From Thermodesulfobacteriota bacterium (GTDB lineage: Bacteria; Desulfobacterota_D; UBA1144; Nemesobacterales; Nemesobacteraceae), in NCBI GenBank assembly GCA_965208155.1, contig OZ242322.1:2175204-2239203 (forward strand): a DNA stretch of 64,000 nt, read 5' to 3'. Numbering within the stretch: the stretch's first letter is position 1; each line of letters starts with the position of its first letter. Position numbers and translations under genes: made by a program. Below, in pieces: positions 18,363 through 51,412 of this stretch. A model generated the notes under the pieces. That model searched no databases, was not told the DNA's origin, and saw nothing but the letters and a program-made list of their open reading frames with translations.

Positions 18363-19343
18363 ATGGAAATGAATAAAGCAATATTAAGCGTAAGGGGACT
18401 TAAAAAGTACTTTCCGATTCGCAAGGGTATTTTATCCAGGGTTTCTAACTATGTACGTGCTGTTGATGAAGTAGAACTTGAAATAAAAAAAGGCAGTACG
18501 GTGGGTCTTGTGGGAGAGAGCGGAAGCGGCAAGACGACTCTTGGAAAAACGGTACTGAGACTCCTTTCCCCAACCGCTGGGAAAATTTTCTTTGAGGGAG
18601 AGGACATCACCGAACTTGACTCCGCCCGGCTTCGCTCTCTCAGAAGAGAAATGCAGATGATATTCCAGAACCCCTACGGCTCACTTAATCCCAGAATGAA
18701 CGTGGGTTCGCTTGTTTCCGAGGGAATAAGTATCCACAACACGGTAAAGAAAGAAGAGCGCCGCGAGTTTGTGGTCCAGCTTCTGGGCGAGGTGGGACTG
18801 GGTGCCGACGTTATGAACCGCTATCCTCACGAGTTCAGCGGTGGGCAGCGCCAGAGAATAGCCATAGCGCGCGCGATTTCTCTTCGCCCGAAGTTTGTTG
18901 TCTGTGATGAGCCTGTCTCGGCTCTTGATGTGTCCGTACAGGCGCAGATAATAAATCTGCTTAAGGACCTCCAGAGGAAACACGGCCTCTCCTATCTTTT
19001 TATATCCCATGACCTTCGCGTCGTAAAACACATAAGCGACCTGGTGGCCGTAATGTACCTTGGAAAAATAGTCGAGATTGCCCCAAGCGAGGAAATCTAC
19101 TCAAACCCCGTGCATCCTTACACCAAGGTGCTTATCTCCGCCATTCCCGAGATAAAAAGAACCGGGAGCAGAAACGGCAAGGAAGTCTCGATATCGGGGG
19201 AAATACGGAATCTCGCGGACATTCCCTCTGGGTGCAGCTTCCATCCGAGGTGCCCTCTTGCGAGCGAGGTGTGCTCAAGGGAGACTCCGCGTCTTGAGAA
19301 AAAAGGAATCGATGGGCGAAGCGTCGCCTGTCATAACGTCTGA
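18363..19343 (+). CDS. Peptide ABC transporter ATP-binding protein (DppF/OppF-like)
   Basis: Walker A GESGSGKT, signature FSGGQRQR, Walker B VVCDEPVSALD, and a Cys-containing C-terminal extension. Start taken at the internal MEMNK. Confidence 0.85.
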   Translation: MEMNKAILSVRGLKKYFPIRKGILSRVSNYVRAVDEVELEIKKGSTVGLVGESGSGKTTLGKTVLRLLSPTAGKIFFEGEDITELDSARLRSLRREMQMIFQNPYGSLNPRMNVGSLVSEGISIHNTVKKEERREFVVQLLGEVGLGADVMNRYPHEFSGGQRQRIAIARAISLRPKFVVCDEPVSALDVSVQAQIINLLKDLQRKHGLSYLFISHDLRVVKHISDLVAVMYLGKIVEIAPSEEIYSNPVHPYTKVLISAIPEIKRTGSRNGKEVSISGEIRNLADIPSGCSFHPRCPLASEVCSRETPRLEKKGIDGRSVACHNV

Positions 19344-32797: not shown

Positions 32798-33964
32798 TTG
32801 AACGTACACGAATACCAGGCCAAAAAGCTTCTCTCTGATTCCGGGGTCAAGGTTCCGGGCGGACAGGTCGTTTTCAGTGCGGATGAGGTCTCGGAGGTAC
32901 TCGATACCCTTAACTCTGAAAAATACGTGGTAAAAGCCCAGATTCACGCCGGCGGCCGGGGCAAGGGAGGCGGAATAAAGGTAGTTGACAATTCCCACGA
33001 CGCTATGGCTGCCGCAGATGAGATAATCGGCATGAGCCTAGTTACCCACCAGACGGGCCCGGAGGGCAAGACCGTGGGAAGCGTTCTTATTGAGGAAGCT
33101 TCCAGTATAGAAAAGGAGTTCTACCTCGGCATGGTGATTGACCGCTCCCGGGAAAAAGTGGTCGTTATGGGAAGCCCCGAGGGCGGGGTTGAGATCGAGG
33201 AAGTGGCGGCCAAGTCTCCCGAGAAGATAATCAAGGAGCATGTTGATATCTCGCTTGGCGTTCAGCCTTATCAGTGCCGGAAAATCGCTTATTTCATGGG
33301 TCTTGAGGGTGGTGCCGTGAGGCAGGCTGTATCGTTTATTTCATCCCTTTACCGTGTGTTTATCGAAAAGGACTGTTCCCTCGCGGAGATAAACCCGCTT
33401 GTTCTAACTTCAGACGGTAACATAGTGGCTCTTGACGCGAAGATTAATTTTGATGATAACGCGCTTTTCCGCCACCGCGACATCGCAGGGTTAAGGGACA
33501 GGGACGAAGAGGATCCGCTTGAGCTTGAAGCAAGCGACGCGGGTATAAGTTTCGTTAAACTTGACGGAAATATAGGGTGTCTCGTTAACGGTGCGGGGCT
33601 TGCCATGGCTACCATGGATATTATAAAGCACCACGGCGGAGAACCCGCAAACTTCCTTGACGTCGGCGGAGGGGCTACCACGGAGCAGGTTACAAAGGCG
33701 TTTAAGATGATCCTTAGTGATGAGAACGTAAAGGCCATTTTCGTTAATATTTTCGGTGGTATAATGAAGTGCGACACCATCGCCGATGGTATCGTGGAAG
33801 CCGCAGACGAGGTCGGAATAAACGTTCCTTTAGTGGTCAGGCTTGAAGGAACCAACGTTGAAGCCGGAAGGGAGATTCTTTCAAACTCCGGTCTTGACAT
33901 CCAGACCGGGGCCGACATGAAAGAAGCCGCGTCCAAGGTAGTTGAAGCTGCCAAAGCTGCCTGA
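32798..33964 (+). CDS. sucC: Succinyl-CoA synthetase beta subunit (ADP-forming)
   Basis: TTG start. ATP-grasp N-terminus ([12 protein letters not shown]) and a ligase-CoA C-terminal domain. No sucD follows. Confidence 0.9.
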
Positions 33965-34190
33965 TTTCAGCGGGTTGCGATTTAACTTCTAGATTCTTTT
34001 CATTAAATTATGAGCGCGTAATCACCCGTTAGAGCGGCATCTTCTCTGGTTTTTGTGTTAATATATAATCTTGGGTGGGTTTTCCTTTATATGGCATGGT
34101 TTTATTGCCGTTTTTTGACCGGATTTGAAAGGGATACGAGATTTTTTAATTTACTAAAGAATTCCATCGATGTTATCTGAGAACTGAGAA

Positions 34191-35453
34191 GTGAAGATAT
34201 CAAAACTAAGACTTAAGAATATTAAATGTTTCAAAGACACTGAGATTTCGTTTGAGGGCGAAAAAGGCGGTGTTAAAGACTGGTCTCTTTTTGTGGGAGA
34301 TAACGGACAGGGAAAAACAACAATTCTTAGAAGTCTGGCCGCAGGGCTATGTGATAAGGAAGGGGCATCGGGTCTTTTATTGGAATTGTATGGAGAATTT
34401 CTAAGACGAGGTAAAAAGGAAGGGTCTATCGAGATTTGTTTAAGAGATGATGAAGGTGAGCAATATACTATTAAAACTTCTATAAGGGGCGATAACGAGT
34501 CTGTTTCTCAGGATGTCTTTCGGGGTGACCGTGTAGGTAAAAAAGGTACTAATGAGGTTAAAGATTTTAAGAGAGAAGAAATTTTCGCGGTAGCTTACGG
34601 TGCGGGTAGGTCTGTTACAGGTACAGAATCCTATGAAGAATATGCATTGGTCGATTCTGTGTATACGCTCTTTAATTATAAATATGCTCTGCAGAATGCG
34701 GAACTGGGAGCAAGCAGGGTTAAGCTTCATTCCGATGAAGAATGGGGAAAACTTAAAAACATTTTAAAAAGAGTTTTAATGTTTCGGGAAGACGATGAGA
34801 TTTCTCTGGAAAGAACAGGATTATATGTTGAAACTAGAAGAGGTAAAGAGTCTTTTAATACTTTAAGTGATGGGTATAAATCACTGACTTCTGTTATTTT
34901 AGATTTTCTAAGCTGGAATCTGATTTATAGAGAAGATGAAGATTTTGATTTAAGCAATCTTTCAGGAATTTTCATCATTGATGAGCTTGAACAGCACCTC
35001 CACCCAAAATGGCAACGGAGAATAGTAAAAATCCTTTCAGAGCAGTTTCCAAAGGTACAGTTCATATGCAGTACGCATACTCCTATTTGTGCTTTGGGGC
35101 TTAGCGACTTGGAGTGTGAATCTTGGCTTTTCAAAGCTGCTTACGTAAACGGGCATAGTGATATTGAGAAATTTGATCTTCGAGAAGATTTTAGGGGTTA
35201 CAGATCTGATCAGATATTGACTTCGGGCATTTTTGACCTTACAGACACGAGGAGCGTTTCCGTAGAAGATAAACTGGAAACTTATAGAAAGATATATCTC
35301 AAGGAAGAAAGCGAAAGAAGCGAGGAAGAAAAGCTGCAGTTTCATGCTATTGAAGACGAACTGAGAGATTTACCTATGTGGGACAACGAAAAAGAGAAGA
35401 AACAAAGGGAAGAGTTAATCAAATTACTTAAGAGCCAAAAAAAGAAATCCTAA
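34191..35453 (+). CDS. AAA_15/AAA_21-type ABC-like ATPase, Septu PtuA-like (copy 1)
   Basis: GTG start. N-terminal Walker A (FVGDNGQGKTTILRSL). C-terminal Walker B / D-loop / H-loop (IFIIDELEQHLHPKWQRRIV...ICSTHTP). Immediately followed by an HNH gene. Confidence 0.6.
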   Translation: MKISKLRLKNIKCFKDTEISFEGEKGGVKDWSLFVGDNGQGKTTILRSLAAGLCDKEGASGLLLELYGEFLRRGKKEGSIEICLRDDEGEQYTIKTSIRGDNESVSQDVFRGDRVGKKGTNEVKDFKREEIFAVAYGAGRSVTGTESYEEYALVDSVYTLFNYKYALQNAELGASRVKLHSDEEWGKLKNILKRVLMFREDDEISLERTGLYVETRRGKESFNTLSDGYKSLTSVILDFLSWNLIYREDEDFDLSNLSGIFIIDELEQHLHPKWQRRIVKILSEQFPKVQFICSTHTPICALGLSDLECESWLFKAAYVNGHSDIEKFDLREDFRGYRSDQILTSGIFDLTDTRSVSVEDKLETYRKIYLKEESERSEEEKLQFHAIEDELRDLPMWDNEKEKKQREELIKLLKSQKKKS

Positions 35454-35456
35454 ATA

Positions 35457-36200
35457 ATGATAAAGATTGAACGTGGAAGGCCCCCTAAAAACACCGCTAT
35501 AGACAAGAGAAGAGAAAGAGAGCTTCGGAAAATTAGGAAATTAGTAAAGTCTAGAGAATTAAAATCTAAGCATTTTGAAAATTTGTGGTCAGACCCAAAA
35601 GTTAAAGACTTCCTATACGAGTCTCAACATGGTAAATGCTGTTACTGTGAAAGAAAACGAGACAAAAGAGAGTCTGACGTAGAGCACTTTCGCCCCAAAG
35701 CTGAAGTTAAAGAAGCCGGAGAAGGCCATCAGGGTTACTGGTGGCTTGCCTATAGCTGGGAGAACTTACTTGTAGCTTGCAAAACGTGTAATCAAGAGTA
35801 CAAGAAATCAAAATTCCCACTAAAGAACAAACGGAAAAGAGCCTACACAGAAAATTGTGACCTTGGCGAGGAAGAACCATTTTTGGTCAACCCGCTAGAA
35901 GAAAAACCGGAATTGCTTATAGATTATGATCTTAGGGAAACTAGGCTTATGGCGAAAGCCGTTGGAAGGTGTGAACGAGGTGAGAGAACAGTCAATGAAC
36001 TGACAGGAATAAACGATAGAAAAGTGATGGAGAAAAGAGCAGACAAACTCAAGGATTATCGGGTGTGGGCATATTTAAAGAATAATGGGAGCGATGAATT
36101 AAAATCAGAGGCCGATGAACGTCTGCGGGAATACGTCTCTCCTTGCAGTGAATTTTCAGGATTTGCAAGATTCTATTTTCAGAAGGAAGGATGTCTTTAA
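35457..36200 (+). CDS. HNH endonuclease, Septu PtuB-like (copy 1)
   Basis: CCYCE...VEHFRPK...ACKTCN HNH core. Starts 3 nt after the ATPase stop. Confidence 0.65.
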   Translation: MIKIERGRPPKNTAIDKRRERELRKIRKLVKSRELKSKHFENLWSDPKVKDFLYESQHGKCCYCERKRDKRESDVEHFRPKAEVKEAGEGHQGYWWLAYSWENLLVACKTCNQEYKKSKFPLKNKRKRAYTENCDLGEEEPFLVNPLEEKPELLIDYDLRETRLMAKAVGRCERGERTVNELTGINDRKVMEKRADKLKDYRVWAYLKNNGSDELKSEADERLREYVSPCSEFSGFARFYFQKEGCL

Positions 36201-37354
36201 TGAAAGACTCCTTCCCGCTAGAACAGTCGGCCGAAACGCCTGCATTTATCTACAATTTAAGTGAAGTAAAAAAAAGGGCGAAACTTCTTTCCCAAATAAA
36301 AAACAAATCAAACTGCAAAATTCTTTATTCTGTAAAACCATTACCCTTGTACAGAGTCTTAGAGGAAATGGAATCCTTGGATGGTTTTTCTGTAAGTTCT
36401 TTTTTTGAAGCTGAATTAGCAAAAAAAGCCTGTAAAGACAAAAAAGAAATTCATTTCATCAGTCCTGGAATTAAGAGTGAACAATGGGAGGATATCTCAA
36501 CCGCTGTCAATTATTTAACCTTTAATTCCTTAGAGCAGTTGTCCTGTTTTGAAACTAGGCTCAAAAAGCAAAGCTACGGTATAAGAGTCAATCCGGAAAT
36601 CTCTTTTATTACAGATCCCAGATACAATCCCTGCCGTGAGTTTTCAAAGCTCGGTGTTCCCATTGCTCAGATTAAAAATAAGATTTCTGACGACCCGGAT
36701 TTTTTTAAAAAAATAGAGGGAATTCATTTTCACACAAACTTCGAAAGCAGAGATTTTTCTCATTTAACTGAGACATTTTCAAAGCTGAAGACCGAACTTG
36801 CGGACGAGCTTAAAAGGTTCAAGTGGATTAACTTGGGCGGCGGCTATCTCTTTGATGAATCGGAAAATCTATCCCTTTTTTATGAACTTATAGATGAACT
36901 TAACGATAATTACAATTTTGATGAAATTATTATCGAGCCTGGTACCTTCCTAGTTAGAGACAGCGGATATCTGGTTTCTTCTGTTATTGATCTTTTTCAG
37001 AGGGATGGAAAAAATGTTGCCGTTTTAGACACCACTGTGAATCACCTTCCGGAAGTCTTTGAATACCAATACGAACCTGATGTTCTAGGGGATGACTTCT
37101 CCAACAAGAATGAGTATATATTAGCCGGGAGCAGTTGTCTGGCAGGGGATGTTTTTGGTGTGTATCGTTTTGAGAACGAATTGGAACTGGGTTCAAAAGT
37201 GATCTTTGAGAAAGTGGGAAGTTATTCCCTAGTTAAGGCGCACACGTTTAATGGGATTAATCTTCCTGATGTTTATTGTCTTGAAGATGATGCTGGACTG
37301 AAAAGGGTGAAAAGCTTTACACTTGAACAATATGTGCACTATTACGGAGGATGA
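36191..37354 (+). CDS. Carboxynorspermidine/carboxyspermidine decarboxylase-like PLP enzyme (Orn/DAP/Arg decarboxylase fold)
   Basis: 387 aa. AFIYNL..., the conserved ILAGSSCLAGDVFGVYRFE and FNGINLPDVY blocks align with NspC. Overlaps the HNH stop by 10 nt. Confidence 0.65.
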   Translation: MSLMKDSFPLEQSAETPAFIYNLSEVKKRAKLLSQIKNKSNCKILYSVKPLPLYRVLEEMESLDGFSVSSFFEAELAKKACKDKKEIHFISPGIKSEQWEDISTAVNYLTFNSLEQLSCFETRLKKQSYGIRVNPEISFITDPRYNPCREFSKLGVPIAQIKNKISDDPDFFKKIEGIHFHTNFESRDFSHLTETFSKLKTELADELKRFKWINLGGGYLFDESENLSLFYELIDELNDNYNFDEIIIEPGTFLVRDSGYLVSSVIDLFQRDGKNVAVLDTTVNHLPEVFEYQYEPDVLGDDFSNKNEYILAGSSCLAGDVFGVYRFENELELGSKVIFEKVGSYSLVKAHTFNGINLPDVYCLEDDAGLKRVKSFTLEQYVHYYGG

Positions 37355-37357
37355 TTC

Positions 37358-38731
37358 ATGCGATTTTTAGAAAGAGAAATATCTTTTCCTAAAATTCAAG
37401 ACAATAGAGATTTGCTGTCATATATTGAAGAGCAAACGTCTTCTTGTTTGAGTGAAGAAGGCTTGCTACCTATAAGGATTGCTGTTACTGACAGCTCGGG
37501 CTCAGATTATAAGTGCGAAGTTGGTGCTTTGTGCACGGAAGACACAAGCAGCTTTGAGGAAGCGAAGCTAGTATTTGAGTTCAAGAAACGAAAGTTTGAA
37601 AACACCAAAAATTTTAATGTCGTTTTCTTGATTCCTACTGGAATTGGTTGTGAAATCGGGGGTCACGCTGGAGATGCCACCCCGGTTGCAAGACTTTTAT
37701 CTTCCAGTTGCGATAACCTCATCACTCATCCGAATGTTTTTAACGCTTCTGACCTCAACGAGATGCCCGAGAACAGTCTCTATGTTGAAGGGAGTACAAT
37801 TTGTCGTTTGATGATGGGAACTGTAGGTCTCCAACCCGTTAGGTCTAACAAAATTCTTGCCGTTATAGATAAAAATGAATATAAGATTTTTGAAAACGCT
37901 GCTGTTAATTCTATCAACGCTGCCAGGGCAGTCTTGGGAATAGAATGTTCCGATATAGTGAAATTAGACCCCTCAATAACTATGGAATCCGAATATTCGT
38001 CTTCCCAAAGAGCTGTCGGCACCATTGACGGAATCGATAACTTGTTCTCCATCTTGAAAAAGTACGAAGGAAGTTATGACGCAGTTGCCATCTCGTCGAT
38101 AATCAATGTCCCCGAGCATTATCACAAGGAGTATTTTCGTTGCAGGGGAGAGATGGTTAATCCTTGGGGAGGGGTAGAAGCCATGCTTACCCATGCTGTT
38201 TCTTACAAGCTCAACATTCCTTCGGCCCATTCCCCGATGTTTGAATCTCCTAAAGTTGCTCATCCAGACCCCGGAGTTGTTGAAGCCAGGATGTCAGCGG
38301 AAGCCGTCTCCACAACTTTTTTCCATTGCGTTTTAAAAGGACTTCATAAAAGTCCTAAAATTATTACCGACCCGGACATGTTTCATTATGACGATATTAT
38401 CTCGGCAAAAGACATTTCCTGCTTGGTTATTCCTGATGGCTGTCTGGGTCTTCCTACTCTTGCAGCTTTGGAACAGGGAACAAAAGTTGTTGCAGTAAAG
38501 GAAAACAAAAACCTGATGAAAAATGATCTCAACGAGCTTCCTTGGGATACCGGACAATTTATTCAAGTGGAAAACTATTTAGAGGCTGCCGGAGTTTTAA
38601 ACTCTATTAAAAATGGAATTGATCCTTCTTCGATAAGACGACCTTTTAAAACTTTAGATCCTTTTGGAACTTCAGATATTTCTCGTGATTCTGAGTATCA
38701 GAGGCCAGCTTTGAAACAGGTAAAAGGATAG
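37358..38731 (+). CDS. Hypothetical 457-aa protein, no recognisable family (glycine-rich VVFLIPTGIGCEIGGHAGDATP motif)
   Basis: Long uninterrupted ORF. RBS GGAGGA sits upstream. Starts 3 nt after the decarboxylase stop. Codon style matches the neighbouring island genes. Confidence 0.5.
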   Translation: MRFLEREISFPKIQDNRDLLSYIEEQTSSCLSEEGLLPIRIAVTDSSGSDYKCEVGALCTEDTSSFEEAKLVFEFKKRKFENTKNFNVVFLIPTGIGCEIGGHAGDATPVARLLSSSCDNLITHPNVFNASDLNEMPENSLYVEGSTICRLMMGTVGLQPVRSNKILAVIDKNEYKIFENAAVNSINAARAVLGIECSDIVKLDPSITMESEYSSSQRAVGTIDGIDNLFSILKKYEGSYDAVAISSIINVPEHYHKEYFRCRGEMVNPWGGVEAMLTHAVSYKLNIPSAHSPMFESPKVAHPDPGVVEARMSAEAVSTTFFHCVLKGLHKSPKIITDPDMFHYDDIISAKDISCLVIPDGCLGLPTLAALEQGTKVVAVKENKNLMKNDLNELPWDTGQFIQVENYLEAAGVLNSIKNGIDPSSIRRPFKTLDPFGTSDISRDSEYQRPALKQVKG

Positions 38732-38821
38732 GTTTCAGAGAGGTTACCACTCTTCATTTTATATTGAGTGTGCAGCTATCTGTTACAAAAGGTGTTACGT
38801 TTTAAGTTGAGAGATAAGAGA

Positions 38822-40123
38822 ATGCATATAACCAGTCTATATTTAGAAAATATAAAATGCTTTGAAAAGCTTACTTATAAATTCCAGGGTGATGGGGGAG
38901 CTTCGCTCGTCATTGCCGGGGATAACGGCGATGGTAAATCTACAATACTACGGAGCATTGCAATTTCTTTATGTGATCAGTGGTCTGCGGCAGGATTGCT
39001 AAGAGAACTGTCAGGAGAATTTATACGTGATAGATGTGACGAAGGAGTAATCAAACTCGGCTTAATATCTGGCAAGAAAAGAAAGAAAAGGTTCGAGATT
39101 GTTACACGTATAAGGTGGGATAGTAAAGAAACATATGAATACCCTTACAGGGAGATTAATCAGATCAAAACTAAGACTAGGGAGCCTGAAGAAATTGAAG
39201 ATTCCAACTTTGATTGGAAAGCGATATTTGCAACAGCTTATGGGTCTGGATTAAGAACTGTGGGAACACAAGATTTTCAGCACTACTTTACTGGCGATTC
39301 TATTTACTCTTTATTTAGGGACGATGTAACTTTGCAAAACCCCGAGTTGGCCATACGACGGATTTCCACTGGTGTTGTAGAAAAACCAACCGCAATCGAC
39401 TCTCAGGAAGAAATAGAGGCTTTTCAAAAAAATTTATTGGATTGGCTTGGTGAGATTTTGATACTTGATAACAAGTCTCTGGAAGTTCACGGAAATGGCA
39501 TTTTTGTTTGCACAAAAGGCAGTAAAACCAAAGTTCCCCTTGTAGCTACAGGCGACGGGTACAAAGCTCTAACGGCCTTGATTCTGGATATGCTCTCATG
39601 GTGGTTTCTCTACGCTTTCTATGGAGCAAAAACTGGAAGCAGAAATAAGGCGAAAATAACTTTGGATAGTCTTAAAATGATGAAAGGAGTTGTAATTATT
39701 GACGAAATAGAACAACATCTTCATCCGAAGTGGCAGAGCAAGATATTACCTTCCTTAGAAAAGAATTTTCCTCAAGTGCAATTTATTGTTGCTACCCATT
39801 CTCCATTAGTTGTGTCCTCCTCAGAAGATGATGTTTTAGTTATAGAAGATGGTCGGGCAAGAAAAGAGAAGTTATATGGCTGGCTTCCAGAAGACGTCTA
39901 TATACAGATGGGTAGAGAAGACGAAAGACCGCCCGAAATTGCAGAAAAAATATCTGAACTTGAGTTGCTGTATAGAGAAAAAATAAGTGGCACTATAAGC
40001 AAACAGGATGAAAAGAGATTCAATAGTATCTACGAACAACTTAAGGTTGAATTGCCTTCGCACGACCCAGTCCTGCAGACAATCAAATTTAATGTAATGC
40101 GTAGGTCTATACAAGATGATTGA
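38822..40123 (+). CDS. AAA_15/AAA_21-type ABC-like ATPase, Septu PtuA-like (copy 2)
   Basis: Walker A (IAGDNGDGKSTILRSI). C-terminal VVIIDEIEQHLHPKWQSKIL...VATHSPLVVS. Paralogous to the ATPase at 34191. Confidence 0.6.
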   Translation: MHITSLYLENIKCFEKLTYKFQGDGGASLVIAGDNGDGKSTILRSIAISLCDQWSAAGLLRELSGEFIRDRCDEGVIKLGLISGKKRKKRFEIVTRIRWDSKETYEYPYREINQIKTKTREPEEIEDSNFDWKAIFATAYGSGLRTVGTQDFQHYFTGDSIYSLFRDDVTLQNPELAIRRISTGVVEKPTAIDSQEEIEAFQKNLLDWLGEILILDNKSLEVHGNGIFVCTKGSKTKVPLVATGDGYKALTALILDMLSWWFLYAFYGAKTGSRNKAKITLDSLKMMKGVVIIDEIEQHLHPKWQSKILPSLEKNFPQVQFIVATHSPLVVSSSEDDVLVIEDGRARKEKLYGWLPEDVYIQMGREDERPPEIAEKISELELLYREKISGTISKQDEKRFNSIYEQLKVELPSHDPVLQTIKFNVMRRSIQDD

Positions 40124-40126
40124 ACC

Positions 40127-40780
40127 ATGAGATTGGTAAATAGAGGCGAGGAACCAGCTACCCTGAAACGAAATTCAAAAAAATGGACGGAAGAGTTGCT
40201 CGATGCTCATGAAAAAGGGGATCAGAACGCAATTGAAAAAGCAGAAAACAGATACAGAAAGCCCGAAATTCAAAAAGCTCTAAAAGATATGTACGGCGAT
40301 CTTTGTTGCTATTGCGAGGGAACCGTGAGTGCTAATAGCTTTGGGCATATCGAACACCGAAAGCCCAAGAGAGAGTTTCCAAAATATGCGTTCAATTGGG
40401 ATAATCTTCATTGGGTTTGTTGGAAATGTAACAATGCAAAAAGTGACAAATGGAATAGGGACAATCCAATTTTAGACCCCACTGCTGATACAGAAATAAT
40501 TCCGACTCATCTTAAACCTATACCTGGTCTTGAAACTATTAAGTTTGATTCTGAAACGGGCTCAGGAAAAACCACAATAGAGCATGCTGATTTGAACAGG
40601 TTAGATTTGGCAAAAGCAAGACGCAAAGTTTGTAATTATGCTTTGGCGTTAAAAAATACGCTTGAAGCAGGGGAAGAATTTTTGAGCGATATAAACATTG
40701 AGAACATTAAGAACCTGATTAATGAGATGAGAGTAGAAGAGTACGGCAGTTGTGTAAAAGAAATTCTTGAACAATCCTGA
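40127..40780 (+). CDS. HNH endonuclease, Septu PtuB-like (copy 2)
   Basis: CCYCEG...IEHRKPK...CWKCNN. Starts 3 nt after the ATPase stop. Confidence 0.65.
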   Translation: MRLVNRGEEPATLKRNSKKWTEELLDAHEKGDQNAIEKAENRYRKPEIQKALKDMYGDLCCYCEGTVSANSFGHIEHRKPKREFPKYAFNWDNLHWVCWKCNNAKSDKWNRDNPILDPTADTEIIPTHLKPIPGLETIKFDSETGSGKTTIEHADLNRLDLAKARRKVCNYALALKNTLEAGEEFLSDINIENIKNLINEMRVEEYGSCVKEILEQS

Positions 40781-40991
40781 TCAAAGGGATTCCAAAATCA
40801 TTGAGCATCTGTGTCAGCGGATCGTTAAAACCCTTCCAGGGATCAGCAAATCCTCTATGTCCTCCGAGCTCTAACTTGCCAGTGGTCTCTTGATTCTTTG
40901 GAGGGAGATGCTTGTCAAAAAGCTCCCTAAACAGATCTTTTGTTTCTTTTTGACCTTTCGGTTCAAAAGCCTTATTTTTTCTACCCATAGT

Positions 40992-41053
40992 GGCGTATCC
41001 TCCTATTGATTTATTTGGCTGAATTCAAATCAACCGGATACGCCGCTTTTTTT
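40992..41053 (+). terminator. Candidate intrinsic terminator / structured junction after the six-gene operon
   Basis: 9-bp inverted repeat ggcgtatcc ... ggatacgcc (with a nested tgaattca palindrome) followed by gcttttttt. Confidence 0.3.
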
Positions 41054-41088
41054 CAAGTTCTCCATACGCCAGTTTTAACTATATCTCT

Positions 41089-41547
41089 GTGGAAGGGGGC
41101 AAGAGGGTTATGTTCACCCGTACCACGGACCTTGTGCAGAGACTCCAGATGGCCCACAGAGAGCTTCGTATGGAGAGTATGCTTGAGCGACTCAACCGTT
41201 ATGACCTGCTGATTCTCGATGATCTTGCGTACGTACGCAAGGACAGAGACGAAACCAGGGTGCTGTTTGAGCTTATATCGAACCGTTATGAGAGCAGATC
41301 ACTGCTTATCACGGCGAATCAGCCCTTTGAAGAATGGAAAAACGTGTTTCCTGACGAAAATACGGCTGTGGCGGCAGTGGATCGCCTTGTACATCACTGC
41401 GTAATCCTTGAAATGAACGTGGAGAGCTACAGATTGCGTCATGCTATGGAGAAAAACAAGGAGGAGGTGAAGAAAAAACGGGGCAGACCCGCGAAATACG
41501 CTACCGAGAATAACTCGGAGGGTCTGACCTCGAAAACTGGAGATTGA
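41089..41547 (+). pseudogene. IS21-family IstB helper ATPase, C-terminal fragment (no Walker A)
   Basis: Aligns with the IstB C-terminal two-thirds (DLLILDDLAYV...LITANQPFEEW...DRLVHHCVILEMNVESYRL). The N-terminal ~110 aa are missing. Confidence 0.6.
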
Positions 41548-41594
41548 TATCTGTCAGATATGCCGGTATCGTCTCACAATCAGCGACACCCAGA

Positions 41595-41714
41595 GTGTCA
41601 TCTTGATTGTCGCAACAGTGCCATCTTGATTGTCGCGCTACACGTCCGAATTCGCTCGGAATAGGTGTCCGAATTCGCTCGGAATCACTGTCCGAATTCA
41701 GTCGTAATATGCAA
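41595..41714. repeat. Five ~19-bp direct repeats at 23-bp periodicity (two sequence classes) ending in a 27-mer shared with 43671-43697
   Basis: Units start at 41595, 41618, 41644, 41667 and 41690. The first two are gtg(t/c)catcttgattgtcgc. The last three are gtccgaattc(g/a)(c/g)tcg(g/t)aat. Confidence 0.8.
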
Positions 41715-41834
41715 CCAGTCCGCTTGCGATAGCAAGCGTAGATATCTATCTCGAAGAGGAGCAAGAGAACGCGTAGGCACTCTATCTCTCCTTGGGGATA
41801 ATATACTTAACTATCCAAAGATAGTTTTCTGTAG

Positions 41835-42224
41835 TTAATTGAGTTTTATGGCGTTTTTTAATATTGCCTTAGTTGCATTCTTTTGGGTTCTGTGGAAGTA
41901 GTAGGCAAGCCCAGCGAATAGGAAAGAGCATAGGATTGGCAATACAATCTTTTGTTCCCACCATATAATCTGGGTCTCAGGGGACCGCTCAAGAAGGTTC
42001 CAGATATAAGAAAGTCCAAAGAAAAGAAAACCGGTAAATAGGGACCAGCATGTTGTTGAGGCGGTATTGAAAGCATTTAGTTGCTCAAGTTCTATTTCTC
42101 TGACTCCGAACACCTTGTCTTTTCTCCCCCAATAATCGCTCTCAACACGAGCTCCCAGCCTTTCAGAAGGACTCCCTGAATCATTCATTGGACTCCTCCC
42201 TCTCGGACTTGGATATAAGCTCAA
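41835..42224 (-). CDS. Hypothetical small membrane protein (2 predicted TM)
   Basis: 129-aa ORF in AT-rich DNA. Overlaps the upstream small ORF by 44 nt. Confidence 0.3.
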   Translation of the reverse strand: MSLYPSPRGRSPMNDSGSPSERLGARVESDYWGRKDKVFGVREIELEQLNAFNTASTTCWSLFTGFLFFGLSYIWNLLERSPETQIIWWEQKIVLPILCSFLFAGLAYYFHRTQKNATKAILKNAIKLN

Positions 42225-42477
42225 TTCCGTATTTGCTTAAAGCATCGAGTAAAACTAAGGTAGCAGCATAAGATGAGAGATATCCACATGTCAAGCAAAC
42301 GGTCAGAAAAGCCGGATAGTAGACCTTGTCGCTTACGCTTGGAACTTTGATTAGTTCATCCATCAAGGTGTATTTGTCTTTCTTGCATTTTGAGCAAACA
42401 TTGAGTCCGTGCTTGTCAATCCACCTCTTTATCTTTTCTTGGTCCTCTTGCGAGAGTTTTTCCAGCTTTTCAGCCAT
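42181..42477 (-). CDS. Hypothetical small protein with CxxC...CxxC
   Basis: 98 aa (CSKCKK...CLTCGY). First gene of a two-gene minus-strand unit. Confidence 0.3.
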   Translation of the reverse strand: MAEKLEKLSQEDQEKIKRWIDKHGLNVCSKCKKDKYTLMDELIKVPSVSDKVYYPAFLTVCLTCGYLSSYAATLVLLDALSKYGIELISKSEREESNE

Positions 42478-42611
42478 AAAATCTTTCCTCTTGTTTTAAA
42501 TTTGGTTGCGGGGATTATACCCGGCGGACTGGACTTCTTGAGTTTCCGGTGATGCTTCCACTCCCACAATTTTAGCCGGTACAGCCCCGGAAGCAACCTA
42601 AGTCCTTTCTT

Positions 42612-43268
42612 GTGGGGAGGGAATGCGCTGAGAGGGAGAGCAGGAAGCAGCGGCGTCTGGTACGCGACGCTTGCTTCAGACTCAGGGCCGATCTGGTAGA
42701 TATTGACTACGGACATTCCCGTAATCTGAGAAAGGCTCAGATAGCCGAGCTTGCCCATGGAGACTGGGTAGAGCGGGGTCGCAATCTTCTCATAACGGGT
42801 CCTTGCGGAAGCGGCAAGACATGGATAGCTTGCGCTCTGGGTCATAACGCGTGTCTGAAGAGGGATATCGGTTCGTTACTACAGGATCTCAAGACTGTTT
42901 CTGGTTCTCTCCCAGGCAAAGGTGGACGGAAGCTACAACAAGCTTCTCTCAAAACTGGCAAGAGTGAACTTCTTATCGTAGACGACTGGGGTCTTGAGGC
43001 TGTGACCACGGCCCAGAGATATGATCTGATGGAGATAATGGATGACCGTTACGGGGAGAGTTCTACTGTGGTGATAAGTCAGCTTCCGGTAAGCGAGTGG
43101 CATGGCATCATAGGGGACAACACTGTTGCCGACGCGATCCTTGACAGGATCGTTCACAACTCTCATCGTCTTGAGCTCGGTGGGGAGTCGATGAGGAAAA
43201 TCGTTGCGGAGAAGGAAGCGAAACAGGAGTTTGTAAAAGGAAAAGAAGAGAATAGAGATGATTGTTAG
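42612..43268 (+). pseudogene. IS21-family IstB helper ATPase, N-terminally truncated
   Basis: Walker A GPCGSGKT, Walker B LLIVDDWG, and a C-terminal DRIVHNSHRLELGGESMR. Only ~30 residues precede the DIDYGH(=DFDF) region. No istA nearby. Confidence 0.5.
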
Positions 43269-43484
43269 GCTCTGGGGGCATGAGAGAAAACAGAGGTGAT
43301 TTTTAGGAGAAAAAACAGACTTTTTACTCGTCGTTTGACAGGGCAATTCTGAACGTGTTAGAGTCTGTTTTGAAGAAGAAAAAAATGGGGTACACGTGTT
43401 CACTTTCCCTCGGAATTGGTGTTCAAATAAATCGTAATACGCACCGGGCATTGATAATAGCTCCGAATAAAGAAAGGATTTGAA

Positions 43485-43556
43485 ATGAAGCTAGTAAAAA
43501 TAAAGTTAAGTAATTTCAGGTGCTATCAATCAGAGACGGAATTTGTATTAGACTGA
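43485..43556 (+). pseudogene. 23-codon N-terminal stub of another AAA_15/OLD/PtuA-type ATPase
   Basis: MKLVKIKLSNFRCYQSETEFVLD* has the same N-terminal signature as the two PtuA-like genes (MKISKLRLKNIKCF...). It is cut off before Walker A. Confidence 0.3.
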
Positions 43557-43649
43557 ACTTCAAGTAGCAAACCCTATTTCAACCGGAACTTTTTCTCCAC
43601 CGACCTGCTCAATGATGTTTTTGGGAAAAAGGAACCGAGAAGTTCAATC

Positions 43650-43697
43650 GTCCGAATTCGTTTGTAATCGCTGTCCGAATTCAGTCGTAATATGCAA
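43650..43697. repeat. Two 23-bp-periodic repeats. The second (43671-43697) is identical to 41688-41714.
   Basis: gtccgaattcgtttgtaat, then ctgtccgaattcagtcgtaatatgcaa. The 27-mer is identical at both loci and followed by unrelated sequence. Confidence 0.8.
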
Positions 43698-43874
43698 GCT
43701 GGCCATATTTAAACTTGACAATCAGCCATCCTCTAATTCAACACTTAACCATTATGTAATTACCTTTTATAAAAGAAGAAATTTAGTAAAACAATTAAAT
43801 GAAATCATTAATCTAACAATTAGTCGAAATATAAAATTGCAATTAGTCGCAAAAATAATTATATTTGATTCGTC

Positions 43875-45121
43875 ATGCTTGAAGCAGATTGTACGCGACA
43901 CGTTGAATCGCGATTGAGAGAGGTCATTAAGGATTCTCCTGTCGTGTTGATTCAGGGCCCCCGCCAGTGCGGAAAAACTACCCTTGCCCGCATGGTGGCA
44001 GGACCGAGGGCTATCACTACATAAGCCTTGATGAAGAGGATGTTCGTGCCGCCGCCGAGGCGGATATTGCGGGATTTGTAAAGACTTTGCCCAAGCGCGT
44101 AATTCTGGATGAGGTACAGAAAGTGCCGGAGATATTCTCATCCATAAAGCTTGCGGTTGACCGCGACCGTGCTCCAGGGCGTTTTATACTGACAGGTTCG
44201 GTAAGCGTGCTGCATGTTCGCGGGATAACAGATTCTCTTGCCGGTCGCATGGATATAATCAGGTTGCATCCTTTTTCACAAAGTGAAATTGAGGGGAACA
44301 CGCCGGGTTTTCCGGAAGCTCTGTTCTCCTCGGAGTTTGATATATGGCAAAGTGGGAGAGATCTGTCGGAGATAATTGTTATGGATAAACTGGCTGCCGG
44401 CGGATACCCGGTTGCCCTTCAGCGCTCTGCGGAGAGGCGTGCCGACTGGTACAGAAAGTATATAGAGGTGCTCGTGGAGCATGATTCTCGTGACATTGCC
44501 GCAATACGTTCATCCGGGATTCTGTCACAGCTGCTTTCCCTTGCTGCCGCTCAGACCGCGAAGCTTCTTAACGTAACCGGTCTTTCCTCTTCTTTTAAAC
44601 TTAGCCGCAATACGATTCATGACTACCTTCTTCTTCTGGAAAAAATGTTTTTGCTTGAACGGCTGCCCGCGTGGCACTGCAATCACCTCAAGCGTCTGGT
44701 CAAGGCTCCTAAACTTCACGTTACGGATACGGGTGTCGCTTGCGCGCTTATGAGGATGAATAGCGCCGCACTCTCGGCGAACAGGCCTTTTTACGGCCAT
44801 CTTCTTGAGACCTGGGTGCTGCAGGAACTGCGTCGCCAGTTAAGCGGACACGCAGAGCCGCATATCTTCTCTCACTATCGGGAAAAGGATGGGGCGGAAG
44901 TCGATATCGTTATAGAACGCGGGGCAACAGCTCTTGCCGGGGTTGAAGTCAAGGCGTCGGCTACTGTGAGAGGTTCGGATTTTCGGGGATTGCGCAAACT
45001 CAGGGCTGCAGCGGGCGATCGTTTTTCCTGCGGAGTCGTGCTTTATAACGGAGAAAGAAGTCTGCGGTTTGGTGCGGGACTCTATGCGGTGCCTCTGCAG
45101 TCACTCTGGGCGACGGAATAA
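43875..45121 (+). pseudogene. DUF4143-type AAA ATPase, frameshifted
   Basis: The Walker A part (MLEADCTRHVESRLREVIKDSPVVLIQGPRQCGKTTLARMVAGPRAITT*) ends at a stop near 44023. The rest (from GYHYISLDEEDV...) continues in another frame to 45121. Confidence 0.6.
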
Positions 45122-48205: not shown

Positions 48206-51200
48206 CTAAGAAGGTGGTTCTAACGATATCCGCCACGTGTTCAGTACTTGGCACTGATGATTCTCGCTTATCCGGTTAGTCAAGTACTCCAGAAGATCTT
48301 CCTGCCTCGGCTGACCGAAAACAAGACGATAAACAGCAAGCATTCTCTTGAGTCGGCGGAAATGCGGTTCTTCTTTGCTGTAGGGAAGAATCGGTACATG
48401 CCGTTCAATACTCGCGCCTTCCTTAAGTTCGTAAAGCCAATACGGGATTAAATCACTCGCCCCGGTTGGACGGTCTTTCTTTGCTAATTCAAACAGGCAA
48501 GACCATGGGTCGCCTTGCCTGTTCCATTTGCCCCTTAAGGCACTCAATCCATACGCCTTGGCTATGTTTTTTCGAACCGCATGTCCCTTGTATCGTTGGA
48601 TTCGTCCTTCCCTTTGCTCTAAATCAACAGGATTGCTCGGCAGGTTCCAGTGAATTACCGAATGACACCAAGTATGGAAATCCAAGCCTTCCTGCCCAAT
48701 GGACGTCGAGGCGAGAACAAACGGTCTGAACGGTGAGTTAAAAGCATCCCGCACGGCGTCAGCCCTAACGACAGCACCTCTGTCGTCTTTCAGTTCACCA
48801 AACCGCAAAGCAAATCGACACCGCGTGTTATAGTCTTTAAGCTCAATCTTCTGTGACTCCGGACGGACAATCACTTCATCTAGCTGTAACCGAGACGTGC
48901 GTATAGAGAGCGAGGAACCTATTGAATCGCCGATGGTTTCAACCCGTTCGGTCTCTGGCTCGTCAATAACGCCAAGAGACTCGACAAGGCAATGCACTTG
49001 TTCATCCAACAATGACTGGATATTTCCTTCAAGGCAATGCTGAAGCGAAAGCCTCCAGTAAGACTCATCTCGTCTGTTTCCTCGAAGAAGTGCAATGCTT
49101 TCCGGAAGATTAAACAAAGTTCGAAAACCTTCAGAAATCCGAACCGCACCACAAAGAAGTTCCGAAGAGTCCAAATTAAGCGAAGGAGATTGTCGCCGAA
49201 GCGCGCGCAAGGCGCAGACACTTGGCGCCGCCACGGCCATCAGGCTTAGAACCTGGAGAAGGTCCGCCGGGGGTCGTCCAAGTGGTGAATCGATAGCGTG
49301 ATCCATGGTCTGGCGAAAAAGTTCCAAATGTTCTCTCAGTCCTTCCACTCTATCACTCGAGTCCTCTTTTGCTATTGAAAACCACCCTTTTTCATCATCA
49401 AGAAGCCAATGCTTTATGTCGGGAAACCTCTTCCCGTCCAGAAGCGCTGGCGCCGCCCAGTACCATCGCTGATCCTCCGGTCCGCTGGCAGGAGCCTCAA
49501 CAAGCAACTGATTAAGTGACGGTCTGATAAGCTCCGCGGCACTATTGAGCAACTCTGCGGCCGAGATAAGCTTATCCTTCTGGTGAGATACAGCGATGAT
49601 CAAAGGGTCTATCAGCATCGCTAGAGCCGGACTCGGGTACATCAAAATCAGCACGGGCATTCCGGTCGGGCGGTTTTCTGAGCCGCGGGAGTATCGAAGA
49701 AGGGGGCGCAGTTCGTCATAGAGCTGATCGTGGGTAATTGGTTTACGTAAACCGGAAAGCATCTTCCGCTCCGCCTCGTACGAGCAGAGAGAAGCTATGG
49801 CGTCAGGAACAACGTTCCACGCGGAGAAGACCAGAGATTTCGTTATGTCAGGTATATCGGCATAAGAGCCACCGGGTCTGCTGTACGGCATAGAGGGCGG
49901 CAGCCAGAGAATTTTCCAGAGTCCCCGATTTATCGTGAGATCGAACAGGTTTCTCATCCTCGGATTGGACGGTGACACTTCCCGATATGATTGAATGTCA
50001 TCCTTGTGTAAAAGATGGTCTGCGTCTGCCCGCAAAGCCTCAATCAGTTCTTCTGGCGCATTCTCACACTGGGCTTCCAGTTTCTGGCGGAATTCATACC
50101 TCCTCAGAAAGTTTATGAGATAGGGGCTTGATTTCCAGTATTCGATGATGTCGCGCGCGCCGACGCTTGACGCGACCCTGTCGGCCAAAACAGCCCCGTG
50201 AATATCCCGTGGTTCCAACGCTACTTCTTGTGGAAATTCTGAGAACATGGCGTCGCGCGAAGGCGTCATGCCCACTCTTTCCGTACGGCACATCACCCTG
50301 ATGAGTTTTGACTGGAGAACATCACGAGCGTTTGATATAGCCGTATCGTCGTCAGATCCGAGAGAATAAAGAGACTGCCTGAATGCTTGGATGTCCCTTT
50401 TGATGCCGTCTATAACCGTCTGGGGATCAACCGACTCGGAATGAGAGAGAAATCCCAATGTCTTCAGAAAGTCTGGGTAATGGTCATCATCCCGTTCATG
50501 GTCAAGAGAAAGCATCTTGTACGGAGTGGCCGACAAAAGCAGCGTTTTGACATTCTCGTATTGAAACAGCTTGTGAGCCAGCCGGTTTTTGTGGTTTTGA
50601 GAGTCTTCTTGATTTTTGGGATCCAGCAGGCTCCTAAACCTCTGAAACTCATCGAGTATGATAAGATCCGGCTCAAGCATATCAATGCTCATCTCGGCAA
50701 GGCGAAACCGCAATTCCGAAACAAGCCAGAGCCGTTCAGGGTCACCCCAAAGAATCCGCCTTCTGGATCGCGCGCAGAAATTCTTAATTTTCTCGTAAAA
50801 CTCCCGGTCCTCGCTTACATTCTTTACGAACTCGTCACGGATATCCTTATCAAGGCTTTCAGGTTTCCATTTGCGTGTCCACCACCACCAGTTTTCATCA
50901 CTCACGCGGCACTGGAGCAGCCGCCTTAAGCCCGCGGGGCTAATATTCAGCCTGCCTTTCAGCAGAAAGTGTATCAGCGCTCGCTCTTTAACCTTTCCAT
51001 CTCTCGATCTGGGATCGAAGCTTGTTCCCGGCGTGAGGCTCACGTAATTTACGCGGTTCTTTCGAATATCGGAGATATCTATTGGGAGAAGGGAAAGACG
51101 TGTAGATCTTTCGAATTTCTGTTCTCCCGAAACATTAAGTCGACGGAGGTTTTGAGACGCGATGCTCATATTCGAGCAGACATAGACAATATCGATCCGA

Positions 51201-51412
51201 CCGACCTTCTTGGCGAGCAAGTGCTCAGTCGCAAGGGCGATAACGCCGCCGGCCACGAGGGTTTTTCCGAGTCCAACCTCATCCGCTACGAGAAAACGAT
51301 CCGTAGTTTCAGGATCTGTATAGAAACGGCGAAACACATATTCGGCGGTCCGCCGCTGAAAGTCCTTAAGTCTTCCGAGGACAAGCTTCGTTTTATGTGA
51401 TTTTCCCGTCAC
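48206..51412 (-). CDS. SNF2-like superfamily-2 helicase (1068 aa)
   Basis: N-terminal motif I DEVGLGKT, DExx box LILDEFQ, and C-terminal motifs V/VI (ASTSIGQEGLDFHTWCHSVIHWNLPSNPVDLEQREGRIQR). Confidence 0.7.
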   Translation of the reverse strand: MTGKSHKTKLVLGRLKDFQRRTAEYVFRRFYTDPETTDRFLVADEVGLGKTLVAGGVIALATEHLLAKKVGRIDIVYVCSNMSIASQNLRRLNVSGEQKFERSTRLSLLPIDISDIRKNRVNYVSLTPGTSFDPRSRDGKVKERALIHFLLKGRLNISPAGLRRLLQCRVSDENWWWWTRKWKPESLDKDIRDEFVKNVSEDREFYEKIKNFCARSRRRILWGDPERLWLVSELRFRLAEMSIDMLEPDLIILDEFQRFRSLLDPKNQEDSQNHKNRLAHKLFQYENVKTLLLSATPYKMLSLDHERDDDHYPDFLKTLGFLSHSESVDPQTVIDGIKRDIQAFRQSLYSLGSDDDTAISNARDVLQSKLIRVMCRTERVGMTPSRDAMFSEFPQEVALEPRDIHGAVLADRVASSVGARDIIEYWKSSPYLINFLRRYEFRQKLEAQCENAPEELIEALRADADHLLHKDDIQSYREVSPSNPRMRNLFDLTINRGLWKILWLPPSMPYSRPGGSYADIPDITKSLVFSAWNVVPDAIASLCSYEAERKMLSGLRKPITHDQLYDELRPLLRYSRGSENRPTGMPVLILMYPSPALAMLIDPLIIAVSHQKDKLISAAELLNSAAELIRPSLNQLLVEAPASGPEDQRWYWAAPALLDGKRFPDIKHWLLDDEKGWFSIAKEDSSDRVEGLREHLELFRQTMDHAIDSPLGRPPADLLQVLSLMAVAAPSVCALRALRRQSPSLNLDSSELLCGAVRISEGFRTLFNLPESIALLRGNRRDESYWRLSLQHCLEGNIQSLLDEQVHCLVESLGVIDEPETERVETIGDSIGSSLSIRTSRLQLDEVIVRPESQKIELKDYNTRCRFALRFGELKDDRGAVVRADAVRDAFNSPFRPFVLASTSIGQEGLDFHTWCHSVIHWNLPSNPVDLEQREGRIQRYKGHAVRKNIAKAYGLSALRGKWNRQGDPWSCLFELAKKDRPTGASDLIPYWLYELKEGASIERHVPILPYSKEEPHFRRLKRMLAVYRLVFGQPRQEDLLEYLTNRISENHQCQVLNTWRISLEPPS

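Follow-up and report, generated by a model that had tools for sequence, protein, structure and literature searches.

Septu anti-phage systems have been described in two forms, and the PADLOC paper recognises only these: type I, which consists of PtuA and PtuB (PtuAB), and type II, in which a reverse transcriptase (RT) accompanies PtuAB. In Retron-Eco7, PtuAB is neutralised by RT-msDNA (PMC12640716). Enzymes resembling the two that we describe here downstream of a PtuAB pair are known from other settings. PavA (a Rieske protein with an NspC-like decarboxylase domain) and PavB (a DUF3326 protein) are both required for formation of N-(5-aminopentyl)pentane-1,5-diamine (preprint 10.64898/2026.06.12.731819). 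Homologues of AdoMetDC/SpeD in phage and bacteria include neofunctionalised Orn/Arg decarboxylases and have been assigned a polyamine-biosynthetic role in viruses (PMC9992855, PMC10407285); a text search of these two papers found no mention of DUF3326. Within the literature searched, we found no description of the four-gene combination of Septu, decarboxylase and DUF3326 genes, no relevant paper joining PtuA/PtuB with a decarboxylase or carboxynorspermidine decarboxylase with anti-phage activity, and none linking carboxyspermidine decarboxylase with a domain of unknown function. The best reading of the locus reported here, judged from its sequence, is that it encodes a predicted and previously undescribed variant of the Septu anti-phage system.

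The cassette lies in a window of 64,000 nt (the whole stretch of DNA that was analysed) and its features are collected in Table 1. The first two genes encode Septu components. The ATPase is matched by the PADLOC PtuA models PDLC00292, 00304 and 00295 at 1e-59 to 1e-55 (best 1.3e-59) and its translation contains intact Walker A (GDNGQGKTT) and Walker B (IFIIDELEQHLH) motifs, while that of the PtuB-type nuclease, which begins after a gap of 3 nt, contains the motif CCYCE...EHFRPK...CKTCN. A 10-nt overlap between this HNH gene and the decarboxylase gene had been pointed out in a preliminary description of the DNA and is borne out by the reading frames, the upstream ORF ending inside the downstream one; if translation instead began at the alternative start 36200, the two genes would overlap by just 1 nt, as a TAATG stop/start. 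The same description took the link to an HNH gene to be meaningful, and this was right: the nuclease is a Septu PtuB, and the two genes belong to a larger unit, a cassette of four. Because PtuA-PtuB-decarboxylase-DUF3326 recurs as a co-oriented cassette, the overlap is not accidental. The GGAGG Shine-Dalgarno sequence of the DUF3326 gene likewise sits within the 3′ end of the NspC-like gene. GC content drops at the left boundary from 0.52 in sucC to the intergenic value given in Table 1, and is 0.38-0.41 in all four cassette genes (0.379 in PtuA) compared with 0.52-0.55 in core genes. Loci L011-L013 also have sdh-sucC in front of the cassette. A terminator scan found no terminator-like site in 33800-41200, which is weak evidence in AT-rich DNA, and no Rfam family was found in 33800-44000, where a single sRNA match was at chance level (20.3 bits against a gathering score of 49, E 0.62). 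Pfam identified no RT domain among the ORFs of the island. The four genes are best read as a tightly coupled operon that was probably acquired horizontally. A second Septu system is present downstream of the cassette in this window, and in locus L001 the cassette is followed by Kiwa and a type I restriction-modification (R-M) system.

Table 1. Features of the four-gene cassette and its upstream flank (positions in the window).
Feature	Position	Strand	Properties
Upstream intergenic region	33965..34190		Left boundary of low-GC island, presumed promoter region; GC 0.358
PtuA-type ABC/SMC-like ATPase	34191..35453	+	First cassette gene; 420 aa; Pfam AAA_15, AAA_21
PtuB-type HNH nuclease	35457..36200	+	247 aa; PADLOC PDLC00339 1.5e-51; NCBIfam PtuB, TIGR02646
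NspC-like fold-III PLP decarboxylase	36191..37354	+	Third cassette gene; 387 aa; ATG start
DUF3326 protein	37358..38731	+	Fourth cassette gene; 457 aa; PF11805 2.6e-95

The third gene had been called NspC-like on the strength of short sequence blocks, and we found that its ORF is intact and that its translation does contain ILAGSSCLAGDVFGVYRFE and FNGINLPDVY. The protein has the two-domain fold-III architecture (Pfam Orn_Arg_deC_N PF02784, 1.4e-13, and Orn_DAP_Arg_deC PF00278, 9.7e-9), matches the NCBIfam family TIGR01047 (nspC) with an E value of 2.8e-80, and aligns over residues 13-381 with the solved carboxynorspermidine decarboxylases 9eaf (1.3e-59) and 3n29 (6.4e-54), such that by sequence comparison its family match to these enzymes is far above chance. 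Among 29 members of its clade K49, H181 (HFHT), GGG216-218, E249-P-G, C316/D320 (CLAGD) and Y345 are invariant, and the same catalytic-motif residues align to both solved enzymes. K49, which we take from general knowledge of the fold to be the PLP-binding lysine, occupies the position of a lysine conserved in both. The TIGR01047 score is nevertheless only 269.6 bits, under the curated equivalog cutoff of 409.05 bits; other clade members score 281-339 bits, compared with 499 and 631 for the solved enzymes, which lie above it. By the preliminary description, a position squarely inside the NspC orthologue clade would count against a non-canonical role; the protein does not take that position, and its whole clade falls below the 409-bit cutoff. 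The flagged ORF thus is, as far as its predicted residues tell, an active-looking PLP decarboxylase of a distinct NspC-like clade and a non-canonical NspC. A non-canonical substrate is plausible, the sole experimental lead being the preprint on PavA and PavB. Genes of this clade carry the annotation 'carboxynorspermidine decarboxylase' (for example P0012) despite their sub-cutoff family scores.

The absence of the canonical synthase partner, also noted in the preliminary description, holds across the window: Pfam detected no saccharopine-dehydrogenase-family protein (CANSDH/Sacchrp_dh) among 38 ORFs, which comprise every ORF of at least 250 aa outside the island apart from 4533-5294 and ORFs overlapped by longer ones. 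A group II PLP decarboxylase, a potential source of a diamine, is encoded at 10424-11884. The assertion that the gene lies outside any polyamine context is, by contrast, inaccurate, since the gene that starts 3 nt downstream encodes a DUF3326 (PF11805) protein, the regular partner of this decarboxylase. DUF3326 adjoins the NspC-like clade in 66 of 82 loci. Elsewhere its neighbours are NspC-like, AdoMetDC-like, PSD-like or OCD-family genes, and adjacency to a decarboxylase recurs with three decarboxylase families. Copies of the pair that lack Ptu genes adjoin Spermine_synth or PspA-DUF4178-DUF350, and in most loci of Dehalococcoidia and Firmicutes the pair is found without PtuAB, so that it has no requirement for Septu. 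The DUF3326 family is highly conserved (mean column identity 59%), and an AF2 model of the protein encoded here (pLDDT 80.6) contains Rossmann-like alpha/beta domains; structure comparison of the model found no specific solved homologue. We regard DUF3326 as a putative C-N bond-forming enzyme. Its regular pairing with a large bacterial clade of NspC-like enzymes, and with AdoMetDC-like, PSD-like and OCD-family genes in phage contigs, points to a widespread alternative triamine route that would bypass CASDH, HSS, DHS and SpeE.

PtuA and PtuB lie upstream of the decarboxylase-DUF3326 pair, and in the same orientation, in 20 loci whose flanking genes vary. These span at least six phylum-level groups (Dadabacteria/Thermodesulfobacteriota, Bacteroidota, Rhodothermales, Bdellovibrionales, Nitrospirota/Thermodesulfovibrionia and Dehalococcoidales), and at most junctions the cassette genes either overlap at stop and start or are separated by 3-17 nt. 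Among 31 metagenomic relatives of PtuA with sufficient downstream DNA, a decarboxylase, usually with DUF3326, follows PtuB in 23 (74%), and eight are without the pair; only one of 13 more distant PtuAs has such a downstream decarboxylase. Distant cassette PtuAs belong to the same PADLOC subfamilies. In 20 of the 23 decarboxylase-bearing metagenomic loci the enzyme is AdoMetDC-like, a pyruvoyl protein of unrelated fold, and in three it is NspC-like; the cassette AdoMetDC-like protein matches no NCBIfam model. Since two unrelated folds share one slot in sister cassettes, these comparisons suggest that what the system would need is the chemical product of the module rather than the decarboxylase protein itself. 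We consider it probable that the decarboxylase and DUF3326 form a polyamine-type module that is integral to a Septu variant and makes up the 3′ half of its operon. The pair could alternatively be an independent unit of defence islands, either metabolic cargo or a stand-alone producer of an antiviral metabolite, mechanistically uncoupled from the nuclease. It does occur alone in many bacteria, DUF3326-decarboxylase pairs are found in phage contigs, and modules shuffle within defence islands, as the additional systems beside the cassette here and in L001 illustrate. Co-divergence of PtuA and DUF3326 leaves room for this alternative too: the Mantel correlation is 0.78 overall and 0.10 among distant pairs, being clear only among close relatives and uninformative beyond approximately 55% divergence. 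The trees, built by neighbour-joining, carry no support values. We nonetheless judge independence to be unlikely, because the genes keep a fixed order and orientation and overlap at their ends, the association marks most of the sampled PtuA subfamily and hardly any distant PtuA, it survives a swap of decarboxylase family, and the operon has no internal terminator-like site.

If the module is integral to the Septu variant, the flagged decarboxylase would work with DUF3326 as a two-enzyme unit that dispenses with the canonical carboxynorspermidine dehydrogenase. DUF3326 would catalyse an amine-joining step, probably nucleotide-dependent, the decarboxylase would remove a carboxylate before or after joining, and the product would be a triamine or another polyamine-type compound. 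Purely by inference, we favour a coupling in which this product would act as a regulator or cofactor of the PtuAB complex or of its nucleic-acid target, much as msDNA does in retron-type Septu, with the nuclease switched by phage-induced shifts in the product pool. A more specific version, which we put forward as doubtful, would make the product an antitoxin or sensor ligand of PtuAB, a metabolite counterpart of retron msDNA, such that infection lowers or alters the pool and releases the nuclease; the AdoMetDC-like/DUF3326 pair of phages would then be a counter-defence that silences it. DUF3326 adjoins AdoMet_dc, PS_Dcarbxylase-like or OCD-family genes on uncultivated IMG/VR contigs that also carry genes for capsid and tail. 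No NspC-like gene was confirmed in IMG/VR, and DUF3326 had no match among the cultured phage genomes of INPHARED or the plasmids of PLSDB.

A different chemistry would have the two enzymes act on DNA, RNA or protein, adding or taking off an aminoalkyl-type modification by which PtuAB could discriminate self from non-self in the manner of restriction-modification, with no free polyamine being made. Phage thymidine hypermodification involves PLP and pyruvoyl decarboxylases, the modification state of a target often governs HNH nucleases, and DUF3326 has no assigned chemistry. We consider this improbable, given that PavAB yields a free triamine (10.64898/2026.06.12.731819), that copies of the pair outside Ptu loci have polyamine or envelope-stress genes as neighbours (Spermine_synth; PspA-DUF350), and that the cassette encodes no kinase, glycosylase or transferase of the sort that base-modification pathways typically contain. 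Least probable of all, and largely refuted by the conserved cassette, is that the flagged gene is a plain NspC for norspermidine/spermidine housekeeping with its synthase elsewhere and its Septu neighbours placed by chance insertion: its best database matches are carboxynorspermidine decarboxylases, its catalytic residues are kept and the group II enzyme is a possible diamine source, but its score is below a cutoff that true CANSDCs pass, its GC content is low and foreign, like that of the Septu genes, the identical four-gene order occurs in many unrelated flanks and phyla, an AdoMetDC-like gene can occupy its slot, and its conserved neighbour is DUF3326, not CANSDH.

The reading of the pair as a module of the Septu variant can be set against each of the known systems. 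The flagged protein belongs to the same fold-III PLP decarboxylase family as NspC/CASDC (PDB 3N29, 9EAF), with which it aligns end to end and shares the conserved Lys, HFHT, GGG, EPG, CLAGD and Y...FNG elements. Its clade differs from these enzymes in having invariant residues of its own (for example GGGY in place of GGGH, and HFHTN), in being partnered by DUF3326 instead of a saccharopine-dehydrogenase-family CANSDH, and in its location in a defence operon. The small pyruvoyl proteins beside DUF3326 in phage contigs and sister Septu cassettes are of the same family as the AdoMetDC/SpeD homologues described previously, which are paired with SpeE, HSS, SpeY or CASDH/CASDC, unlike the DUF3326 pairing seen here (PMC9992855, PMC10407285). 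The pavettamine cluster likewise combines an NspC-like unit with a DUF3326 protein, both genetically needed for a symmetric triamine intermediate, but there the decarboxylase is a domain within a 1119-aa Rieske fusion whereas here it is a separate gene, and the cluster also has a JmjC hydroxylase, has no nuclease or ATPase and serves toxin biosynthesis in a plant endophyte (10.64898/2026.06.12.731819). The likeness of PavB to the DUF3326 protein of the window is one of shared Pfam membership only.

With Septu type I the cassette shares the ATPase and HNH pair, with strong PADLOC and NCBIfam matches and intact motifs. Type I is complete as two genes, whereas here two further conserved enzyme genes follow in the operon, apparently translationally coupled, and such extra genes are found in the 20 genome loci and 23 of the 31 metagenomic ones. 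Septu type II and the type I-A retrons (Retron-Eco7, Ec78) resemble the cassette in plan and offer a model for how its module could work: they couple PtuAB to accessory biosynthetic genes that make msDNA, and msDNA in turn controls the nuclease (PMC12640716). Unlike them, the cassette has no reverse transcriptase or ncRNA, and the accessory product that we propose would be a small amine instead of msDNA, with a hypothetical role in the control of PtuAB. If correct, this would constitute a third Septu architecture, in which the nuclease and ATPase are firmly tied to a module for small-molecule synthesis that can use either of two unrelated decarboxylases, and it makes a link between polyamine-type metabolism and an anti-phage nuclease directly testable.

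The preliminary description likened the flagged gene to carboxynorspermidine decarboxylase (CANSDC, NspC), and the 387-aa translation, which starts at an ATG, does contain both peptide strings quoted there. Pfam identifies both fold-III PLP decarboxylase domains, the top NCBIfam match is TIGR01047 nspC (2.8e-80), and residues 13-381 align with the solved CANSDCs 9eaf (1.3e-59) and 3n29 (6.4e-54). The likeness therefore stands, but against TIGR01047 the protein scores 269.6 bits, far under the curated equivalog cutoff of 409; four relatives from different contexts score 281-339 bits, and 9eaf and 3n29 reach 499 and 631 bits. When 9eaf and 3n29 serve as outgroup in a neighbour-joining tree, the window protein falls into a single group with 81 relatives (all our trees are distance-based). 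Judged by its sequence, the protein is NspC-like and not NspC. K49, which we take from general knowledge of the fold to be the PLP-binding lysine, aligns with a lysine conserved in both solved enzymes, and H181, GGG216-218, E249-P-G, C316/D320 and Y345 are invariant across an alignment of 29 diverse clade members; the catalytic apparatus is thus intact. The clade has GGGY and HFHTN where the solved enzymes have GGGH and HFHT(L). Intact catalytic residues combined with such clade-specific differences make decarboxylase activity very probable and leave room for a substrate other than carboxynorspermidine.

The usual synthase partner (CANSDH) had been reported absent, and Pfam scans of the window agree: no saccharopine-dehydrogenase-family protein was found in 38 ORFs, which are nearly all of those big enough for a CANSDH of ~400 aa. 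The further claim that the gene lies outside any polyamine context has to be given up, since a DUF3326 gene begins 3 nt past its stop codon, with GGAGG within the decarboxylase's final codons. DUF3326 adjoins the decarboxylase in 66 of 82 loci (tblastn and ORF clustering), drawn from the best 80 of 571 relatives recovered in a scan with each species represented by one genome and three earlier context look-ups. It is thus an obligate-looking neighbour, and this next gene is the true partner of the decarboxylase. DUF3326 is tied to polyamine-type synthesis by its bacterial and viral contexts and by genetics. Stand-alone pairs neighbour a Spermine_synth gene in Clostridiales PH28_bin88 and PspA-DUF4178-DUF350, a cluster type that accompanies polyamine genes elsewhere, in Dehalococcoidia. 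According to a 2026 preprint (10.64898/2026.06.12.731819), making N-(5-aminopentyl)pentane-1,5-diamine requires both PavA, a Rieske protein that includes a decarboxylase domain of NspC-like type, and the DUF3326 protein PavB. In the syntenic Dehalococcoidia loci (L025-L055), the pair has NIPSNAP on its upstream side and is followed by PspA, DUF4178 and a double DUF350 membrane protein; in a separate set of loci, it occurs with an unknown 470-aa protein and an RCK potassium channel. A sister group within the same NspC-like clade (L062-L090; Gammaproteobacteria, Methylococcaceae), also under the NspC cutoff, has no DUF3326 neighbour and is accompanied by a Zn-dependent dehydrogenase (Pfam) and RppH-like and LysR-like genes (judged by eye). 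Elsewhere in the window, a group II PLP decarboxylase gene (PF00282), divergent from an aldehyde dehydrogenase gene, is a possible source of a diamine, for instance 1,3-diaminopropane.

The reported 10-nt overlap with an HNH gene is real, and that gene encodes PtuB of a Septu defence system; an alternative in-frame ATG at 36200 would give the classic TAATG 1-nt overlap. The order and orientation PtuA-PtuB-decarboxylase-DUF3326 are the same in homologues at 91%, 76%, 53% and 46% identity with different flanks, and adjoining genes are closely packed, overlapping by 10 nt in locus L002 and by 1 nt and 14 nt in locus L006, for instance. The full cassette occurs in 20 loci of the genome scan (best 80 of 571 relatives), all MAGs or metagenome contigs, not named isolates, from Dadabacteria/Thermodesulfobacteriota, Rhodothermales, a Bacteroidetes MAG, Bdellovibrionales, Nitrospirota/Thermodesulfovibrionia and Dehalococcoidales. 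We read the HNH overlap as reflecting a conserved four-gene cassette; the decarboxylase and DUF3326 form a tight operon with PtuAB. In a 1.86-Mb relative (L001/L013, 4921-7251), an insertion sequence with a minus-strand rve integrase splits the cassette PtuA into 228-aa and 187-aa parts, and the decarboxylase and DUF3326 are intact despite this.

Features of the window, and of a second type of cassette on contig L111
Feature	Position	Strand	Remarks
HipA-family kinase	7221-8432	+	inside or beside opp transporter cluster
Aldehyde dehydrogenase	8640-10073	-
Group II PLP decarboxylase	10424-11884	+	PF00282
AbiEi antitoxin-like	12242-13069	+	inside or beside opp transporter cluster
Oligopeptide ABC transporter ATPases	15200-16195, 18309-19343
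Mrr-type type IV restriction enzyme	17331-18251	+	between the two ATPase genes
PtuA (Septu)	34191-35453	+	PADLOC 1.3e-59; Walker motifs intact
PtuB (HNH, Septu)	35457-36200	+	PADLOC 1.5e-51; HNH motif intact
NspC-like decarboxylase	36191-37354	+
DUF3326	37358-38731	+	PF11805, 2.6e-95
Second Septu, two-gene	38768-40780	+	PtuA 451 aa, PDLC00269; PtuB 217 aa, PDLC00337
Truncated IstB (IS21 helper ATPase)	41089-41547, 42612-43268	+	GC about 0.50-0.52; right side of island
Small ORFs	41835-42477	-	
AAA_14/DUF4143 ATPase	43967-45121	+	PADLOC candidate PDC-S01, 6e-138; immediately right of island
ZacABC, complete	48206-54415	-	ZacA (DUF6361), ZacB, ZacC (helicase, 1068 aa)
L111: PtuA, PtuB	6001-7308, 7429-8097
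L111: AdoMetDC-like, DUF3326	8140-8472, 8564-9838

In the window, all four cassette genes have a GC of 0.38-0.41 and a GC3 of 0.33-0.38; the flanking sdh, sucC and dnaK have 0.52-0.55 and 0.58-0.69. From this shared low GC we conclude that the decarboxylase was brought in together with the defence genes and did not belong to the resident metabolism. Cassette neighbours are typical of defence islands, being a second Septu in the window, Kiwa with type I R-M in L001 and toxin-antitoxin pairs in L006. The second Septu, directly 3′ of DUF3326, is ordinary and of another PADLOC subfamily than the cassette PtuAB. Close relatives carry Kiwa (KwaA/KwaB) and a type I R-M system at its position, which makes this site, downstream of sucC, a hot spot for defence genes. 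The truncated IstB ORFs are probably IS remnants at the island edge. Further away, each ZacABC candidate defence protein has a near full-length PADLOC match, and the Mrr gene looks like an insertion into the oligopeptide ABC transporter operon. No AbiEii was seen adjoining the AbiEi-like gene.

Metagenome contigs were searched with a PtuA alignment only, keeping matches of at least 110 bits whose contig continued for 1.3 kb or more downstream. Among the matches listed, 23 of 31 such PtuA relatives had a decarboxylase directly after PtuB, usually then DUF3326, as did one of 13 weaker relatives; fractions from our locus and metagenome samples are estimates, not a census. The decarboxylase was NspC-like in three of the 23 listed loci and a small AdoMet_dc-family protein, 51-70% identical to phage versions, in 20. 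Two decarboxylase folds are therefore interchangeable in the same slot. Both cassette types and stand-alone pairs are interleaved in the DUF3326 tree (neighbour-joining, without support values). PADLOC subfamilies PDLC00292, 00304 and 00295 are common to the window PtuA and distant cassette PtuAs; the second window PtuA prefers PDLC00269. PtuA distances track DUF3326 distances over the whole set (Mantel r 0.78, 0 of 2000 permutations) and do not among distant pairs (r 0.10), so co-inheritance of the two is shown within the window's clade. Their deeper history may be a single origin followed by swaps or may involve repeated assembly.

DUF3326 also occurs in 20 IMG/VR contigs, none of which has an NspC-like neighbour. 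A ~124-aa AdoMet_dc protein precedes it in 14 of these loci, a PS_Dcarbxylase-like protein follows it in three (L098-L100) and an OCD/mu-crystallin (ornithine cyclodeaminase family) protein precedes it in three (L094, L108, L109), where major head and UvsX genes adjoin. The four contigs checked (L091, L093, L108, L109) are viral, with major head, UvsX-like, tail-fibre and head-tail adaptor genes. Because DUF3326 repeatedly recruits amino-acid decarboxylases of three unrelated folds, it is best explained as half of a putative condensation-plus-decarboxylation route, analogous and not homologous to CASDH/CASDC. Phage-borne modules could simply supply polyamines, the role of other phage polyamine genes (PMC9992855), or serve counter-defence.

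Our interpretation is built on sequence and gene context. The decarboxylase-DUF3326 module would make an amine product, and this product, not the decarboxylase protein, would be what matters to the system, since the protein is replaceable. We propose tentatively that it may regulate or enable PtuAB. That the pair, which also stands alone and in phage, is an independent hitch-hiking module seems rather unlikely. A macromolecule-modifying enzyme pair that provides self/non-self marking is improbable, and an ordinary NspC placed by chance in so recurrent a cassette, with so low an equivalog score, is more improbable still.

PADLOC recognises only Septu type I (PtuAB) and type II (RT and PtuAB), to which the window cassette adds a decarboxylase and DUF3326. 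PADLOC holds no model for either protein and PHROGs none for DUF3326; full-text searches found no literature relevantly linking PtuA/PtuB with a decarboxylase and DUF3326 named in no more than three papers. We therefore rate the cassette a previously undescribed Septu form around a barely characterised enzyme pair. In retron-type Septu, PtuAB stays bound and neutralised by RT-msDNA as long as no phage nuclease has destroyed the latter (PMC12640716); the proposed effect on PtuAB of an amine product of the decarboxylase-DUF3326 module would be a parallel to this.
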